Positions 7,383 to 20,815 of a DNA stretch of 44,290 nucleotides are shown piece by piece. The position numbers and the translations under genes were made by a program. The stretch comes from a virus. Its lineage: Duplodnaviria > Caudoviricetes. The notes below the pieces were generated by a model that saw only the letters and a list, made by a program, of their open reading frames with translations, made no database searches and was not told the DNA's origin. The DNA lies in the IMG/VR virus record IMGVR_UViG_3300020045_003367, positions 1 through 44,290 of that record. The stretch is one strand, 5' to 3'. Every line of letters starts with the position of its first letter. Position 1 is the first letter of the stretch.

Positions 7383-7877
7383 ATGCAAATCTTTGTTACA
7401 GACCCTAACCCTTATATCTGTGCACGAAACTTAGATGATAAGCGAGTAGTTAAAATGGTTCTTGAGTCATGCCAACTACTTAATAATGTCTTACTATTAA
7501 AGTATAATGATAATAGTGTTGGCTATAAACTAACTCACAAAAATCATCCATGTACTAAGTGGTTACTTGAAGATGAAGTTAACTATAACTGGCTAGTATG
7601 CCATTTCTTTTATTTATGCGATGAGTATACTAAAAGATATGGTAAAACTCATAAATGCTATTCACACTATGAAAAATTCCTTAATCGTACGGAAAGTATA
7701 CAATATGCTGAGACATTTGTTAACTGTACTACAAACCATAAGCATATTGAGAATGTGTTTGAAGCTTACAAAGCTGAATTAATTATGAAATGGGATAATG
7801 ATGTTAGACCACCAAAATGGACTAAAGACTCAGAACCAATGTTTTATCTTGAGCATAAATATAGGAAAGTATCATGA
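7383..7877 (+). CDS. Pyrimidine dimer DNA glycosylase/endonuclease V family protein
   Basis: MQIFVTD..A..LDDKRVVKMVLESCQLL..YKLTHKNHPCTKW signature. Confidence 0.8.
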   Translation: MQIFVTDPNPYICARNLDDKRVVKMVLESCQLLNNVLLLKYNDNSVGYKLTHKNHPCTKWLLEDEVNYNWLVCHFFYLCDEYTKRYGKTHKCYSHYEKFLNRTESIQYAETFVNCTTNHKHIENVFEAYKAELIMKWDNDVRPPKWTKDSEPMFYLEHKYRKVS

Positions 7878-15683: not shown

Positions 15684-17333
15684 ATGAATTTTAAAGTTAT
15701 TAAAGACCTTAAAGAATTACCAAAATTTAGTATAGAGTACCCATGTTTTATGGATATTGAAACTGAAGAGTTCTATACTTACATTCGCTTAATTCAAATC
15801 TATCAACCTGAAACTAGTGATATTATCTATGTTCTAGATATGGATGAGCTAGACTTAAATGAAGTAAAAGCACTTATCAAGCCATTATGGTCAGTATTTC
15901 ATAATGCCTCATATGACTTTGGTACTCTTAATATGACAACTGATAAGTTTGATGATACAATCTACTTAGCACGTACTGCATACCCAGAGTGGCAAGAGTA
16001 TGGCCTTGATGAAGTAGTTGCTAAACTTGGGTTTAATAATCTATATGATGGATTAGATAAACATAAGTTACAAAAAGCAGGTTTTATTAAAGGTGCTTAT
16101 CTATCAAATGACCAGCTTAGGTATTCAGCCACTGATGTTTATGCTTTATCTCTTATATGGAAAAACGAGAGATTACAAGCAGTTAGAAATATTATAGCTT
16201 ATAAAGTAGATATCTTATCTATGAAGTATGCTATTGAGTATCAACAAAATGGGTTAATTGTTGATAGAACTTCAGTACGAAAAGAGTTAGATAAAGTTGA
16301 AATAGATATTAATGCTAATGACTCATCACTTAATGGTATTAATCCAAACTCACCAAAACAATGTAAAGAAGCTTTAAATGTAGCATCAACAGATAAACCT
16401 ACTCTTATTAGGCTTATCTCAGAAGGTAATTCATTAGCTAAAGCTATCTTTGACCAACGTCGACTTCTTAAACGTCGTACATTTTTAACTAGTTATAACA
16501 AACCAAAGGTCTTTACTAAGTTTAATGTTGCTGGTGCTGTTACTGGTAGATACACTGCTTCAGGCGGTGATTTATCTAATGGTATTAATGCTCAACAGAT
16601 TACGCGTAACCTACAGTATCTATTTAACCAAGATACCGAAGATACAGTTGTTATTGAGTGTGACTTTGGTACAGCAGAGTTACGAGCAGCAGCCTCTATC
16701 ATGAAAGAAAAAGTAATGTATGAAGAGTTAAAAGCTGGTTTAGATTTACATAAGATTGCAGCAAGCTTGGCTACAGGTAAACCATTAAGTGATATTACAA
16801 AAGACGATAGGCAAAAAGGTAAAGCAGTTAGCTTTGGATTAATCTTTGGTATGTCTGCCGCAAGCTTTATGGAATACGCTTTTACAACCTACGGTGTTAT
16901 ATTTACTTTAGAAGAATGTAAAGAGATTAAACGTAAATACCAAGAACGTTATCCTGCTATTACTAAGTATCACAATGATTGTTGGTTTAACTATAAAAAT
17001 CCTGGCTACTTTGTTACTACGGCTTTAGGACGTAGAGCAAAACCAAGACTTGGTACAGATGCAATTAATATACCTACACAAGGTACTATTGCTGAGACAA
17101 CAAAATTAGCTATCCATTATATGGTTAAAGAAGATGAACGTATCTTAGGTTATATCTATAACGTAGTTCATGACCAAATTAATGCTAGAGTTCCAAAAAC
17201 TGAGTTATTATATTGGAAAGAGTTAATGGTTAGGAACATGCAAAAGGCCTGGACAGAAATCTGCAAAACAGATTTAATGTACTATAAAGATATTCCTATG
17301 CCAGTAGATGCTGAGCATAGTCAAGCAGCTTAA
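15684..17333 (+). CDS. polA: Family A DNA polymerase with 3'-5' exonuclease
   Basis: DIET, HNASYD, YSATD; TGRY; DFGTAELR (motif A); RQKGKAVSFGLIFG (B); VHDQ (C). Confidence 0.93.
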   Translation: MNFKVIKDLKELPKFSIEYPCFMDIETEEFYTYIRLIQIYQPETSDIIYVLDMDELDLNEVKALIKPLWSVFHNASYDFGTLNMTTDKFDDTIYLARTAYPEWQEYGLDEVVAKLGFNNLYDGLDKHKLQKAGFIKGAYLSNDQLRYSATDVYALSLIWKNERLQAVRNIIAYKVDILSMKYAIEYQQNGLIVDRTSVRKELDKVEIDINANDSSLNGINPNSPKQCKEALNVASTDKPTLIRLISEGNSLAKAIFDQRRLLKRRTFLTSYNKPKVFTKFNVAGAVTGRYTASGGDLSNGINAQQITRNLQYLFNQDTEDTVVIECDFGTAELRAAASIMKEKVMYEELKAGLDLHKIAASLATGKPLSDITKDDRQKGKAVSFGLIFGMSAASFMEYAFTTYGVIFTLEECKEIKRKYQERYPAITKYHNDCWFNYKNPGYFVTTALGRRAKPRLGTDAINIPTQGTIAETTKLAIHYMVKEDERILGYIYNVVHDQINARVPKTELLYWKELMVRNMQKAWTEICKTDLMYYKDIPMPVDAEHSQAA

Positions 17334-17342
17334 GGAAGATAA

Positions 17343-19046
17343 ATGTTAGATGGATTTGAAATGCCAGAAGGCTTTAAAGAGTTAGACTTAACAGAGTTTG
17401 GCACTGTAATGGCGCCAGTAACTAATAAGATTGCATTAATTGATGCTGATACACTAGCATGGACAAGTGCACTTGCTGCTCAACAAGAGATGCAAGTATT
17501 ACCAGATACTTTCTATACAGAGATTGAGTTAGATGCAATTAAAACTAATCCAACATTTGATGAAGAGTCAATGACATACTCATTGATTGACATCGATATG
17601 GCTATGCAACTTGCTGATGATAAGTTACAACGTATTTATGAACTATCTGGTTGTAGAAGTTGTGAGATGCACTTTTCTGGTGGTAGAGAGAATTTTAGAT
17701 ACATGCTATTTCCAGAGTATAAAGCTAATCGTACAGGTATGAAAGTACCAGATGGCTTATATGAGTTAAAACTAAAACTTTGTGAAAAGTATAATGGTAT
17801 AATTCATACAAAATGGGAAGCAGATGATTATGTAGTTTTTGTTATGCAACAAGCACCTGAGAACTATGTTCTTTGCGCGGTTGATAAAGATGTTATTAAC
17901 TCGGTAGTTGGTACACATTTTAACTATTATGAGTCAGGAGCATTTAATAAAGATATGCATTATGTAACTACAGATGAGAGTACAGCAAAACTTTGGCCTT
18001 ATATACAATGTATGACTGGTGATACTAGTGATGGTATTGCTGGTGTTAAAGGTATTGGACCTAAAACTGCACTTAAGTTTATAAATGATACTATGACTCA
18101 TCAAGAGTTATGGGAAGGCACGCTAAGCGCATATAGGAGTAAAAATATTGATGAAAGCCAAGCTCTTCTTAATATGAGACTTGTTAATATGCATCAACTT
18201 ATAGCACCTATTGGTTGTGAAGTAGGTATTAAACTATGGGAGCCTACACACATGAACTATGAACAAGACTATAGGCAATTAGTTAAGAAAATTCTTGATA
18301 CTGGTGAATTAAGAGAAGGTAGAAATGGTAAAACATTAGCTATCTTCGGTGAAACTATTAAAATAGATTTAAGTAATTCTATGGAGTTTCCACTTTTAAC
18401 AGGGCGTAAGATTTTCTATAAAGGTGTGCTAGGTGAACTTGCAGCAATGCTTAGAGGACCTAAAACTATTGCAGACTTTAAAAAGTTTGGTTGTAACTAT
18501 TGGGATTTATGGGCAAAAGAAGATGGAACTATTAATGTTGATTATGGTAATTCATGGATAGATTTTAATGGCGTTGACCAGCTTGAAAGGTTACGTGAAA
18601 GTCTAGCAACAGACCCAAGAGGTAGAAGACATCTAGTTACTGGATGGAGGCCTGATAATTTATGGGCATTAGACTTACCATGTTGTCATTATGCTTACCA
18701 ATTCTATATTCGTGATGGAGAATATATTGATATGCTATGGCATCAAAGAAGTTGTGATACTATGATAGGTTTACCTAGTGATGTTATCTTTGCAGCAACC
18801 TGGTTAATCTTCCTAGCAAGTGACCTAGGTTATATGCCAGGCACTATAACTATGACTCTTGGTGATACTCATATCTATGAAGAGCATATTGACCAAGCAA
18901 AAGAGTACCTAAAGACTCTAATGTCAGATGCCCCAACATATAGAACTACTACTATATATCAAGATTTTAGAAAGTTCGAACCAGATTGGTTAGTAATTGA
19001 GAATTATAATCCAGTTACAACTATGAAGTTTGAGTTAAAGGCTTAA
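17343..19046 (+). CDS. Fusion of a 5'-3' exonuclease (T7 gp6/T4 RNase H-like) and a thymidylate synthase homolog with Asp at the Asn177-equivalent position
   Basis: N-terminal LIDAD, YKANR, EADD, DKD, GDTSDGI.GVKGIGPKTA; C-terminal from M304 GRN, FPLL, RR, PCCH, QRSCDTMIGLPSD, GDTHIY. Confidence 0.9.
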   Translation: MLDGFEMPEGFKELDLTEFGTVMAPVTNKIALIDADTLAWTSALAAQQEMQVLPDTFYTEIELDAIKTNPTFDEESMTYSLIDIDMAMQLADDKLQRIYELSGCRSCEMHFSGGRENFRYMLFPEYKANRTGMKVPDGLYELKLKLCEKYNGIIHTKWEADDYVVFVMQQAPENYVLCAVDKDVINSVVGTHFNYYESGAFNKDMHYVTTDESTAKLWPYIQCMTGDTSDGIAGVKGIGPKTALKFINDTMTHQELWEGTLSAYRSKNIDESQALLNMRLVNMHQLIAPIGCEVGIKLWEPTHMNYEQDYRQLVKKILDTGELREGRNGKTLAIFGETIKIDLSNSMEFPLLTGRKIFYKGVLGELAAMLRGPKTIADFKKFGCNYWDLWAKEDGTINVDYGNSWIDFNGVDQLERLRESLATDPRGRRHLVTGWRPDNLWALDLPCCHYAYQFYIRDGEYIDMLWHQRSCDTMIGLPSDVIFAATWLIFLASDLGYMPGTITMTLGDTHIYEEHIDQAKEYLKTLMSDAPTYRTTTIYQDFRKFEPDWLVIENYNPVTTMKFELKA

Positions 19047-19047
19047 T

Positions 19048-19461
19048 ATGCAAGTAGGTATTTGCTTATTAAGTAAAAATGGATACTATTTAAGGGAGGA
19101 CGGAAGTCTTCCTATTAGGCCATCATGGGATAAAAAGTTTTTAGTTGACTTAGTAACAGGTATGTCAACTATTTGTAGTCAAAATACGTTTAATACTTTA
19201 CCTCTTAGTATTAAAGAAGTTTGTCCTTTTAGCTATATTTATATTCCTAGTGAGGATACTAGATTTGATTTACCTTGCCAAGATATAAACCTAGGTATTG
19301 CAACATTTAAAGAAAATCCAGAACTTATGTTTATAGTTAGGTCAAAATATGAAGCAGATGGTGGTAAGTTATTAAGACTTGATAACTATACTAAGATTAT
19401 AGATTTTACAAAAGATGATGGAGACTTTGAAATATGGAAACTAAAGACTTTGAGCAACTAG
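19048..19461 (+). CDS. Divergent dihydrofolate reductase-like protein
   Basis: NG....DGSLP...SWDKKFL and ICSQNTFNTLP resemble FolA N-terminal motifs; directly after the TS homolog. Confidence 0.55.
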   Translation: MQVGICLLSKNGYYLREDGSLPIRPSWDKKFLVDLVTGMSTICSQNTFNTLPLSIKEVCPFSYIYIPSEDTRFDLPCQDINLGIATFKENPELMFIVRSKYEADGGKLLRLDNYTKIIDFTKDDGDFEIWKLKTLSN

Positions 19462-20081
19462 CATTATCAATCGCTAGTAAATCACTTGCAAAGAAACGTA
19501 AAGTTGGAGCAGTAATAGTTGATTGTAACAATTATATATTAGGTACAGGGTTTAACTATAATCCTAGTGGTGGATTATGTGAAGATGACCTAGGTAATAC
19601 TTTTCCTGGAGTTATTCATGCTGAAGTCGCAGCTATAGACTCTATGGGAATTACATATCCTAAGTCATTAGCCTATCCACTTACTATTTTCGTTACTCAT
19701 TCACCATGCGAAAATTGTCAAAAAGCAATTTCTAATGCTAATATTGATAATATAGTAGTTGTTAATCAGTTTATGAAGTTTGATACAGGTAAACCTAGAT
19801 ATGACTTAATTCCACCAAGCGCTATGGCAGGTATGGCTAAAGTATTAACATACGGAGCTAAGAAGTATAAACCAGGTAACTGGAAAGAAGTAGAAAGTTT
19901 AGATAGGTATGTAGCAGCTTTATATAGGCACCTAGAAGCCTGGAGGCAAGGTGAAAAGACTGATAGTGAAAGTGGGTTACTTCATCTAGAACATGCTTTA
20001 ACTAATGTAGCCTTTCTACTTGAACTAGATAAACCTAAACTAGTAAGGAGACGCCGTGGTACAAATCAAAACTCTAATTGA
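19434..20081 (+). CDS. dCMP deaminase fused to DUF5664 (dATP/dGTP diphosphohydrolase-like)
   Basis: KVGAVIV, HAE, SPCENC; then KFDTGKPRYDLIP..YGAKKY..NW..RHL..DSESGLLHL. Confidence 0.88.
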   Translation: METKDFEQLALSIASKSLAKKRKVGAVIVDCNNYILGTGFNYNPSGGLCEDDLGNTFPGVIHAEVAAIDSMGITYPKSLAYPLTIFVTHSPCENCQKAISNANIDNIVVVNQFMKFDTGKPRYDLIPPSAMAGMAKVLTYGAKKYKPGNWKEVESLDRYVAALYRHLEAWRQGEKTDSESGLLHLEHALTNVAFLLELDKPKLVRRRRGTNQNSN

Positions 20082-20304
20082 AGAGATGAGTGCTAAAGGT
20101 CTTAAGGGTTATGAGATTGCTGAACGACTAGGAGTATCAAATTCTATGGTTAGCAGTTATACTACACAAGGTTTTGATGCTAGTTTTAATGTAGCAGTAA
20201 AAGTATATCAGGATATGAAAATAGTTCTGCATCCATTTGCTGAAGAGAGTTTAATCTACGAAATTAATAAAAGGGGTGAAAATGCTAAACTTAGACGAGC
20301 TTGA
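20056..20304 (+). CDS. XRE-like HTH DNA-binding protein
   Basis: GLKGYEIAERLGVSNSMVSSY; AAGGAG RBS. Confidence 0.75.
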   Translation: MVQIKTLIEEMSAKGLKGYEIAERLGVSNSMVSSYTTQGFDASFNVAVKVYQDMKIVLHPFAEESLIYEINKRGENAKLRRA

Positions 20305-20815
20305 GAAAGCAACAACTGAATGGGCAGATGCAAGAGGTATCATTAGAAACGGTAAACTAGTTACGCAAGTAGCTAAACTATTTGAAGAGTCTGGTGAATT
20401 AGCAGGTGCTATTCTAAAAAATAAAGATAAAGAGATTAAAGATAGTATTGGTGATAGCATAGTTGTACTTAATAACATAGCTAAAATCTATGGTACTACT
20501 TTAGAAGAGTGCTGGAACTTAGCTTATGAAGAGATTAAGGACCGGAAAGGGTATCTTAATGAAGAAGGTAACTTTATTAAAGAAGCAGATATGCAAGAAG
20601 TTATTAAGGCAGAGAAAATTATTAGTAATACAGATTTTATGTATGACACTAGACCTTTTACTATAACTATTAGTATAACTTATGATGACAAGACTAGTGA
20701 AATTTTAACTATATGGTCAACTATTTTATCTCCTATTGAAGTTCCAAGAGGTAAATATTTAACGCTAAGTCAATATAAAGAAGTATTAACAGGATTATTC
20801 TATGAATTTATATGA
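20276..20815 (+). CDS. MazG-like NTP pyrophosphohydrolase with a C-terminal extension
   Basis: WADARG..KLFEESGELA..IKDSIGD..AYEEIKDRKG. Confidence 0.85.
   Translation: MKMLNLDELEKATTEWADARGIIRNGKLVTQVAKLFEESGELAGAILKNKDKEIKDSIGDSIVVLNNIAKIYGTTLEECWNLAYEEIKDRKGYLNEEGNFIKEADMQEVIKAEKIISNTDFMYDTRPFTITISITYDDKTSEILTIWSTILSPIEVPRGKYLTLSQYKEVLTGLFYEFI

Follow-up and report, generated by a model that had tools for sequence, protein, structure and literature searches.

A predicted dCMP methylase of the thymidylate synthase fold in a 44-kb tailed phage, with 5-methylcytosine DNA as a probable outcome

We analysed the viral genome IMGVR_UViG_3300020045_003367 (Duplodnaviria; Caudoviricetes) over its whole length of 44,290 bases, referred to here as the window; its termini overlap by 93 nt and the virus record is complete. 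A cassette at positions 17343 to 20815 contains a thymidylate synthase (TS) homologue with Asp instead of Asn at the specificity position (177 in the numbering of E. coli ThyA), followed by a protein with a predicted dihydrofolate reductase (DHFR) fold, a deaminase fused to a DUF5664 domain and a MazG-like protein (Table 1). The residues predict that the TS homologue very probably methylates deoxycytidine monophosphate (dCMP), and we hold with moderate confidence that 5-methylcytosine (5mC) occurs in the phage DNA and that thymidine nucleotide is a by-product of the same 5-methyl-dCMP, in a manner similar to that of phage Xp12.

The TS homologue is the sole ThyA-fold gene of the window (one PF00303 gene). 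Its specificity codon encodes Asp480 of the open reading frame (ORF) 17343-19046 and lies within QRSCDTMIGLPSD. In the alignment to solved structures, Asp480 falls on the Asn of the Brucella and Cryptosporidium enzymes and on the engineered Asp of the L. casei N229D mutant (1njc); together with the LPCCH motif, this bears out the preliminary description, in which Asp replaced Asn177 beside an intact catalytic Cys-His pair. The Asp is neither a chance substitution nor a sequence error, because it is fixed in all 120 best-listed homologues (of 1547 matches). The equivalents of Glu58, Trp80, Tyr94, Leu143, Cys146, His147, Asp169, His207 and Tyr209 are invariant in an alignment of 64 sequences, and among the positions counted the differences from ThyA are limited to 176 (Phe to Ser or Ala) and 177. 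The AlphaFold2 (AF2) model of the domain, with a predicted local distance difference test score (pLDDT) of 95.7, matches canonical TS at Z 30-32 with a root-mean-square deviation (rmsd) of 1.4-1.6, while MilA (Z 23) and T4 dCMP hydroxymethylase (Z 18) are weaker matches.

According to a rule for ThyA-fold enzymes (PMC13326640, available in part), Asp177 directs the enzyme to dCMP, an acidic residue at 143 gives a hydroxymethyl product and Asn169 gives a hydroxyl product. The TS homologue has Leu instead of the Asp/Glu143 of the hydroxymethylases T4 gp42 and MilA, Asp instead of the Asn169 of the dCMP hydroxylases of RB69 and DLP3, and Asp instead of the Asn177 of canonical ThyA, which acts on deoxyuridine monophosphate (dUMP). 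Because Asp177, Leu143 and Asp169 fit the rule, the protein reads as a methylase, and the 64-sequence census agrees with the dCMP-methylase assignment put forward earlier. Asp at position 177 also shifts the substrate of the E. coli and L. casei enzymes, as reported in the accessible part of the literature.

The ORF that follows the TS shows no Pfam, PHROG or NCBIfam match and no meaningful sequence match in the PDB, and a profile comparison with the DHFR of Xp12 gave a probability of 0.4. Identified through structure only, it is predicted to adopt the DHFR fold, as the preliminary description had proposed: its AF2 model (pLDDT 63.6) matches DHFR in Foldseek (E 2.4e-6) and in VIA (Z 10.7, rmsd 3.2, 131 aligned), with RibD-type reductases reaching up to 9.2. 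Asp28 and the LP and NLG motifs are invariant in 40/40 homologues. Asp28 is an acidic candidate at the folate-binding position, its equivalence being judged by eye to the acidic residue of E. coli DHFR, which we take to be Asp27. The DHFR-fold gene follows the TS in 15 of 18 sister loci of the window type and in 0/12 loci of the hydroxymethylase type, a distribution that supports the earlier linkage of DHFR with reductive methyl transfer.

The deaminase-DUF5664 fusion (PF00383, E 3.9e-17; PF18909, E 5.4e-32) has the dCMP deaminase 4p9c as its top PDB match; Pfam and PHROG recovered this fusion, the helix-turn-helix (HTH) protein and MazG as first described. The two pyrophosphatases differ in their distribution. 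DUF5664 is a better candidate for the deoxycytidine triphosphatase (dCTPase) than MazG, because DUF5664 or DUF6378 occurs with every cassette type of the sister phages and MazG and the HTH protein stand beside other types too. Characterised DUF5664 enzymes cleave dATP, dGTP and dUTP (PMC12884076, available in part).

In the pathway that we propose, the TS homologue would methylate dCMP to 5-methyl-dCMP. A host enzyme, or a phage protein that escaped recognition, would phosphorylate most of this product, which would then enter the phage DNA as 5mC. The fused deaminase would convert another part into thymidine nucleotide at the mono- or triphosphate level, as in Xp12, and the DHFR-fold protein would recycle the dihydrofolate released by reductive methyl transfer. 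An all-alpha pyrophosphatase, with DUF5664 as first and MazG as second candidate, would turn dCTP into dCMP, which would both remove canonical cytosine and feed the methylase. We infer every activity, the level of deamination and the extent of cytosine replacement from the residues, folds, gene order and distribution.

The pathway has already been published for Xp12 and by Yang et al. (bioRxiv 2024.12.05.627091, available in part); the window represents a distant clade, with 32% TS identity to Xp12 and His147 kept. Xp12 DNA contains 100% 5mC (PMC7653180, available in part). The Xp12 block (MT664984) encodes a PRA-PH hydrolase (QNN97215), a TS (QNN97214), a deaminase (QNN97213) and a DHFR (QNN97212), and the same genes are found in PaMx74 and in AXL1, which resists 26/31 enzymes (PMC9206674, available in part). 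Both the window and Xp12 possess an Asp177-type TS with an adjacent deaminase, DHFR and all-alpha nucleoside triphosphate (NTP) pyrophosphatase, a family A polymerase and no recognisable deoxynucleoside monophosphate (dNMP) kinase. However, the deaminases are only 26% identical, the DHFR of the window is not detectable by sequence, and its deaminase is fused to DUF5664 and its TS to a 5'-3' exonuclease (FEN). The window is a 44-kb phage with a P22-like portal and 34% GC, whereas Xp12 is a 64-kb member of the Mesyanzhinovviridae with 68% GC.

In the available text of Yang et al., a deaminase adjoins the TS in 104/149 modified contigs and 5-methyl-dCMP was made by 5/7 N177D TS enzymes tested. 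The mSCD-B5 deaminase acts on 5-methyl-dCTP and not on 5-methyl-dCMP, and was proposed to supply dTTP without a second TS. As in the mSCD systems, where a PF00383 deaminase lies within 3 kb of an N177D TS with neighbours including PRA-PH and DNA polymerase A, the window carries a PF00383 Zn-site domain in cis with the N177D-type TS. The mSCD selectivity is polyphyletic and the available text gives no diagnostic residues for it, so the window deaminase is not assignable to the 5mC-selective class. The branch from the deaminase to thymidylate, as envisaged in the preliminary description, stays plausible, but the published precedent for one well-characterised enzyme is at the triphosphate level. 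The MetaGPA supplements contain no GLPSD or LPCCH string.

The surroundings of the cassette were compared among polymerase relatives (36-69% identity), which share the order polA, FEN, a variable slot, HTH, MazG and ligase. The slot holds a window-like cassette at 18 loci; DUF5664 with a hydroxymethylase-type TS at 3 loci, with a carbamoyltransferase in two; DUF6378 with a T4-gp42-like TS at 9 loci, with a radical SAM gene shown in four; another TS type at 2 loci, which in L240 precedes a C5 methyltransferase; DUF6378, a ThyX paralogue, a deoxyribosyltransferase and an HD hydrolase at 12 loci; and DUF5664 only at 1 locus. The nearest polymerase relative of the window, L204 (69% identity), is a phage of the hydroxymethylase-carbamoyltransferase type, and accounting for the cassette types on a quick tree takes at least 9 changes, where 7 would be the minimum. 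In most cases the slot is thus occupied by genes of nucleotide modification, on a polymerase lineage that likely accepts modified dCTP. T4 gp42 and the enzyme of the carbamoyl-5-hydroxymethylcytosine pathway (PMC8670742) have Asp at the specificity site as well, and homologues of both occupy this slot in the sisters; they differ from the window enzyme in the acidic residue at 143, the lack of a DHFR, an often separate ThyX and the weaker structural match.

The co-occurrence survey suggested at the outset shows an association of the Asp-type TS with a deaminase, which is present within 8 kb at 70 of 89 non-redundant loci (the survey required at least 3 kb downstream, which removed 11/102 rows for insufficient length, and did not admit low-scoring short variants). 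These deaminases belong to several distinct types. The remaining 19/89 loci, some of them fragments, have no deaminase nearby. The complete genomes of VPMS1 and Kolga encode no deaminase at all, so that the TS product has no phage route to deoxythymidine (dT) there, and G004 (98% complete) lacks a deaminase but has a kinase. One contig carries the pyrophosphatase-TS-deaminase block twice (L019:7004-12757), either by duplication or as an assembly artefact.

Three natural Asn variants (L144:10001-10816, L124:8301-9128 and L134:1237-2025), at about 50% identity, branch at three places within the Asp clade in a quick tree and have probably reverted to acting on dUMP. The L144 genome is complete, whereas L124 reaches 49% completeness and L134 measures 4.7 kb. 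A deaminase is present at 0/2 in-clade Asn loci, and the third, short locus is also without one; there, in L134, the TS runs directly into a nuclease, where the Asp sisters have DUF6378 and the deaminase. Because none of the three variants has a deaminase, the Asp appears tied to it. ThyX was found in 0/29 Asp-clade records, the window included, by a search that was not fully sensitive (it missed a weak ThyX match of L225), and in 5/9 records of three other TS cassette types.

Phages with a hydroxymethylase avoid few restriction sites (2.4% vs 55.8%; PMC6286503, available in part). Our panel consists of 4-5-bp palindromes that Xp12 DNA resists (published supplement), and a site was called avoided at an observed/expected ratio <0.5 with at least 20 expected. 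A first panel of 13 sites omitted CATG, GANTC and CTAG after their depletion had been seen; it gave 14/727 avoided sites for Asp-type genomes and 14/85 for relatives without a ThyA fold. The full panel of 16 gave 34/916 (63 records) for Asp-type genomes, 13/152 (12 records) for the hydroxymethylase type, 19/106 (7 records) for relatives without a ThyA fold, in which the absence of PF00303 was checked, and 25/104 (7 records) for the ThyX-paralogue type, in a comparison of related rows from mostly partial genomes whose hosts were not identified and with cut-offs set after viewing the data, so that small p-values overstate the differences. CCNGG is avoided in 4/61 Asp records vs 5/7 records without a ThyA fold.

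Two further signals were rejected as evidence. GATC is nearly absent from the window (4 sites on both strands, where 197 are expected), but this does not count against 5mC, since DpnII and MboI cut Xp12 DNA and the hydroxymethylase sisters avoid GATC too. The CpG depletion of the window (0.39) was set aside, CpG being low in L233, L238, L225 and L124 too. Low GATC, CATG and GANTC would presumably fit a host among the Campylobacterota, which is a lead only.

We favour 5mC in the phage DNA because the sisters fill the slot with cytosine-hydroxymethylase cassettes, because Asp-type genomes appear to show the low avoidance described above, and because 19 of the Asp loci do without a deaminase; the missing ThyX and the kinase-like gene of some Asp-type genomes point in the same direction. 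Several observations weigh against it. A phrog_139 search of the window returned no kinase. In the accessible MetaGPA data, the residue at 147 told modified contigs apart from unmodified ones, and a non-His residue there is tied to modified contigs, though not as a strict rule; the clade has His in 64/64 sequences, and Xp12 has Pro147 and Asn143 where the window has His147 and Leu143. Of 17 TS that are linked to a deaminase on unmodified MetaGPA contigs, about half are, in the available text, not predicted to make dT, and an Asp-type TS may thus sit on canonical DNA. An HhH-GPD glycosylase adjoins the Xp12 block (L006:46973-47455), and none was found in the window with Pfam and PHROG. The in-clade Asn genomes avoid 0/29 sites (2 records), contrary to expectation. 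The window is depleted in CATG (0.60), TGCA (0.77) and GAATC/GATTC (10 vs 44 each), although NlaIII, HpyCH4V, HinfI and TfiI leave Xp12 DNA uncut; the hydroxymethylase sisters avoid CATG too (7/12). PH1 avoids CCGG (0.44). Finally, we found no base or restriction analysis for the cultured relatives KF-1, IW-1, ETP-1, ZHX, VPMS1, PH1, Amaethon and Kolga, most original descriptions lying beyond our search. The glycosylase of Xp12 is, in its own right, a candidate T:G repair enzyme.

The absence of a kinase had been taken in the preliminary description to favour a route ending in deoxythymidine monophosphate (dTMP). We rejected it as a discriminator. A P-loop motif scan of the window returned helicases only (GKD-type loops fall outside the pattern), but Xp12, with its fully methylated cytosine, is blank as well: phrog_139 is absent from the whole record and a Pfam scan of 30/84 ORFs found no kinase. 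Six complete hydroxymethylase-type sister phages also lack phrog_139, so the blank in the window does not favour a dTMP-only route. Matches to phrog_139 occur in 10/48 records, strong in two (G028 and G004, both Asp-type) and otherwise mostly weak P-loop matches in long frames; a dNMP-kinase-like gene is present in the Asp-type L222/G028, G004 and L280. Xp12 reportedly induces a 5-methyl-dCMP kinase.

The same facts bear on a bypass in which dCMP passes through 5-methyl-dCMP to dTMP without dUMP, while the DNA keeps ordinary cytosine. Such a bypass would accord with the window's lack of a kinase, with the 29 Asp-clade records devoid of ThyX, where the cassette plausibly supplies dT, with three probably independent Asp-to-Asn changes, each at a locus that has no deaminase, with the retained His147, with the possible occurrence of Asp-type TS and deaminase on unmodified MetaGPA contigs (source available in part), and with a dCMP deaminase as the best structural relative of the window deaminase. 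We nevertheless consider it somewhat unlikely as the sole function, since it leaves the deaminase-free Asp loci, above all VPMS1, Kolga and the kinase-bearing G004, unaccounted for, since the missing kinase is common to Xp12 and the hydroxymethylase sisters, and since the slot carries modification cassettes in sisters and 5mC-blocked sites appear little avoided.

It is likewise doubtful that the clade that keeps His147 derived dCMP methylation from ThyA independently and uses it solely as a reversed, dUMP-free thymidylate pathway in phages with ordinary-cytosine DNA. On this interpretation a single Asp/Asn residue would toggle the pathway in nature, with the deaminase absent from each of the three Asn variants, and the slot would be a swappable one that is filled in sisters by at least 4 other nucleotide-modification cassettes.

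A divergent but ordinary TS acting on dUMP, with the deaminase making dUMP from dCMP as in T4, seems improbable. The remaining active-site residues are ThyA-like, the fold is nearest to canonical TS, deaminase, TS and DHFR form the classical trio, and the Asn variants lie inside the clade; against this stand the fixation of the Asp among the best-listed homologues, its effect on substrate choice in E. coli and L. casei TS and its correct prediction of 5-methyl-dCMP in most enzymes assayed by Yang et al. (available in part), and the fact that the Asn variants are precisely those without a deaminase. A 5-hydroxymethyl- or 5-hydroxy-dCMP product for later hypermodification is highly improbable: such cassettes do occupy the same slot in sisters and 2/7 Asp-type TS of Yang et al. 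yielded no 5-methyl-dCMP (text available in part), but the window keeps Leu143, unlike hydroxymethylases with their Asp/Glu143, and Asp169, unlike hydroxylases with their Asn169 (sources available in part), a DHFR-fold gene comes next, and no transferase family appeared among 55 ORFs scanned with Pfam and PHROG.

If 5mC is indeed incorporated, widespread small lytic phages, some of them cultured and annotated with a plain thymidylate synthase, have 5-methylcytosine DNA, and a different set of restriction systems would stop them. The clade would be a source of candidate 5mC-selective deaminases, and the natural Asp/Asn TS pairs are useful for study of the specificity switch. The chemistry and the pathway being published, the gain is one of range and not of mechanism; the literature searched, available in part, shows no activity for this TS clade.

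The cultured phages nearest by TS and polymerase are KF-1, IW-1, ETP-1, ZHX, Amaethon (a podovirus according to a review available in part), PH1 and VPMS1, with TS identities of 47-54%. Their TS and that of Kolga are 45-54% identical to the window enzyme, and Asp occupies position 177 in all five translated records (KF-1, Amaethon, PH1, VPMS1 and Kolga). KF-1, Amaethon and PH1 share the order polA, TS, pyrophosphatase and deaminase/DUF5664. In contrast to the window, these Kafunavirus-like phages have no DHFR-like gene beside the TS, which is annotated as plain thymidylate synthase. The polymerases of the KF-1 group are 28-30% identical to that of the window.

Table 1. Positions of the cassette, its key residues and the adjoining backbone genes in the window
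Feature	Position	Strand	Evidence and remarks
Family A DNA polymerase	15684..17333	+	PF00476, E 5.5e-41; backbone; would incorporate modified dCTP
FEN domain, in-frame fusion to TS	17343..18251	+	PF01367/PF02739, phrog_107
Asp177-type TS homologue, predicted dCMP C5-methyltransferase	18252..19046	+	PF00303, E 2.8e-60
LPCCH: equivalents of Leu143, catalytic Cys146 and His147 (Leu445-His449)	18675..18689	+	Sequence; invariant in 64/64 aligned homologues
Asp169 equivalent	18756..18758	+	Sequence; 64/64 homologues; with Asn, the enzyme would read as a dCMP hydroxylase
Asp codon GAT at the Asn177 specificity position	18780..18782	+	Sequence and alignment to solved structures
Divergent DHFR-fold protein, likely folate recycling	19048..19461	+	AF2 with Foldseek/VIA; Atlas lead 0.84
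dCMP-deaminase-family domain (aa 4-110, HAE..PC..C) fused to DUF5664 NTP pyrophosphohydrolase (aa 114-200)	19434..20081	+	
Small HTH protein	20056..20304	+	Weak HTH matches; backbone, not cassette-specific
MazG-like pyrophosphatase	20276..20815	+	PF03819, phrog_7855/715; backbone, also beside other cassette types

The fusion of the FEN and TS domains looks incidental, because one homologue, 87% identical, begins at the position of the internal Met and because L235 and P0162 have such fusions as well; in most relatives FEN is a separate gene. The internal Met at 18252 is preceded by a Shine-Dalgarno-like GGGAG. FEN runs in frame into the TS over an ATGA motif (18240-18257), and a one-base change from the usual overlapping two-gene layout would yield the fusion.

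The other cassettes of the slot deserve description. The ThyX-paralogue type (L215:10051-12277; also L213, L216-L220, L223, L230, L233, L238 and L247) combines DUF6378, a divergent ThyX paralogue, a nucleoside 2-deoxyribosyltransferase and an HD 5'-nucleotidase, and is possibly an undescribed modification cassette; G021 and G022 encode a second, canonical ThyX, which suggests that another nucleotide may be the product of the paralogue, and several genomes of this type strongly avoid C-containing sites. A radical SAM protein, an unassigned protein of 240-290 aa, DUF6378 and a T4-gp42-like TS (L228:11785-15257; L229, L231, L232, L243-L245, L254 and L227) form a candidate cassette for 5-hydroxymethylcytosine hypermodification in small podophages. 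The combination of DUF5664, a hydroxymethylase-type TS and a carbamoyltransferase, with ThyX downstream (L204:7279-10044; L237; L242; L345), resembles the carbamoyl-5-hydroxymethylcytosine pathway (PMC8670742). A further TS type lies beside DUF6378 and a C5 DNA methyltransferase (L240:13089-15127; L239), with ThyX elsewhere in G019, and one sister phage has a Tad2-like (Thoeris anti-defence) gene between FEN and TS (L207:10608-11093).

Outside the cassette, Pfam and PHROG identified the markers of a small tailed phage, namely terminase, P22-like portal, capsid, family A polymerase, primase, helicases and ligase. A promoter scan of the window did no better than chance (36 vs 41). In most sisters, whatever their cassette type, the position of the HTH gene is taken by an ORF of about the same size. 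The top GenBank match of the polymerase is a hot-spring Aquificae virus (31%), and one FEN homologue bears a Sulfurimonas label. A pyrimidine-dimer DNA glycosylase (DenV-like, PF03013) is encoded at 7383-7877 and is annotated in VPMS1 too.

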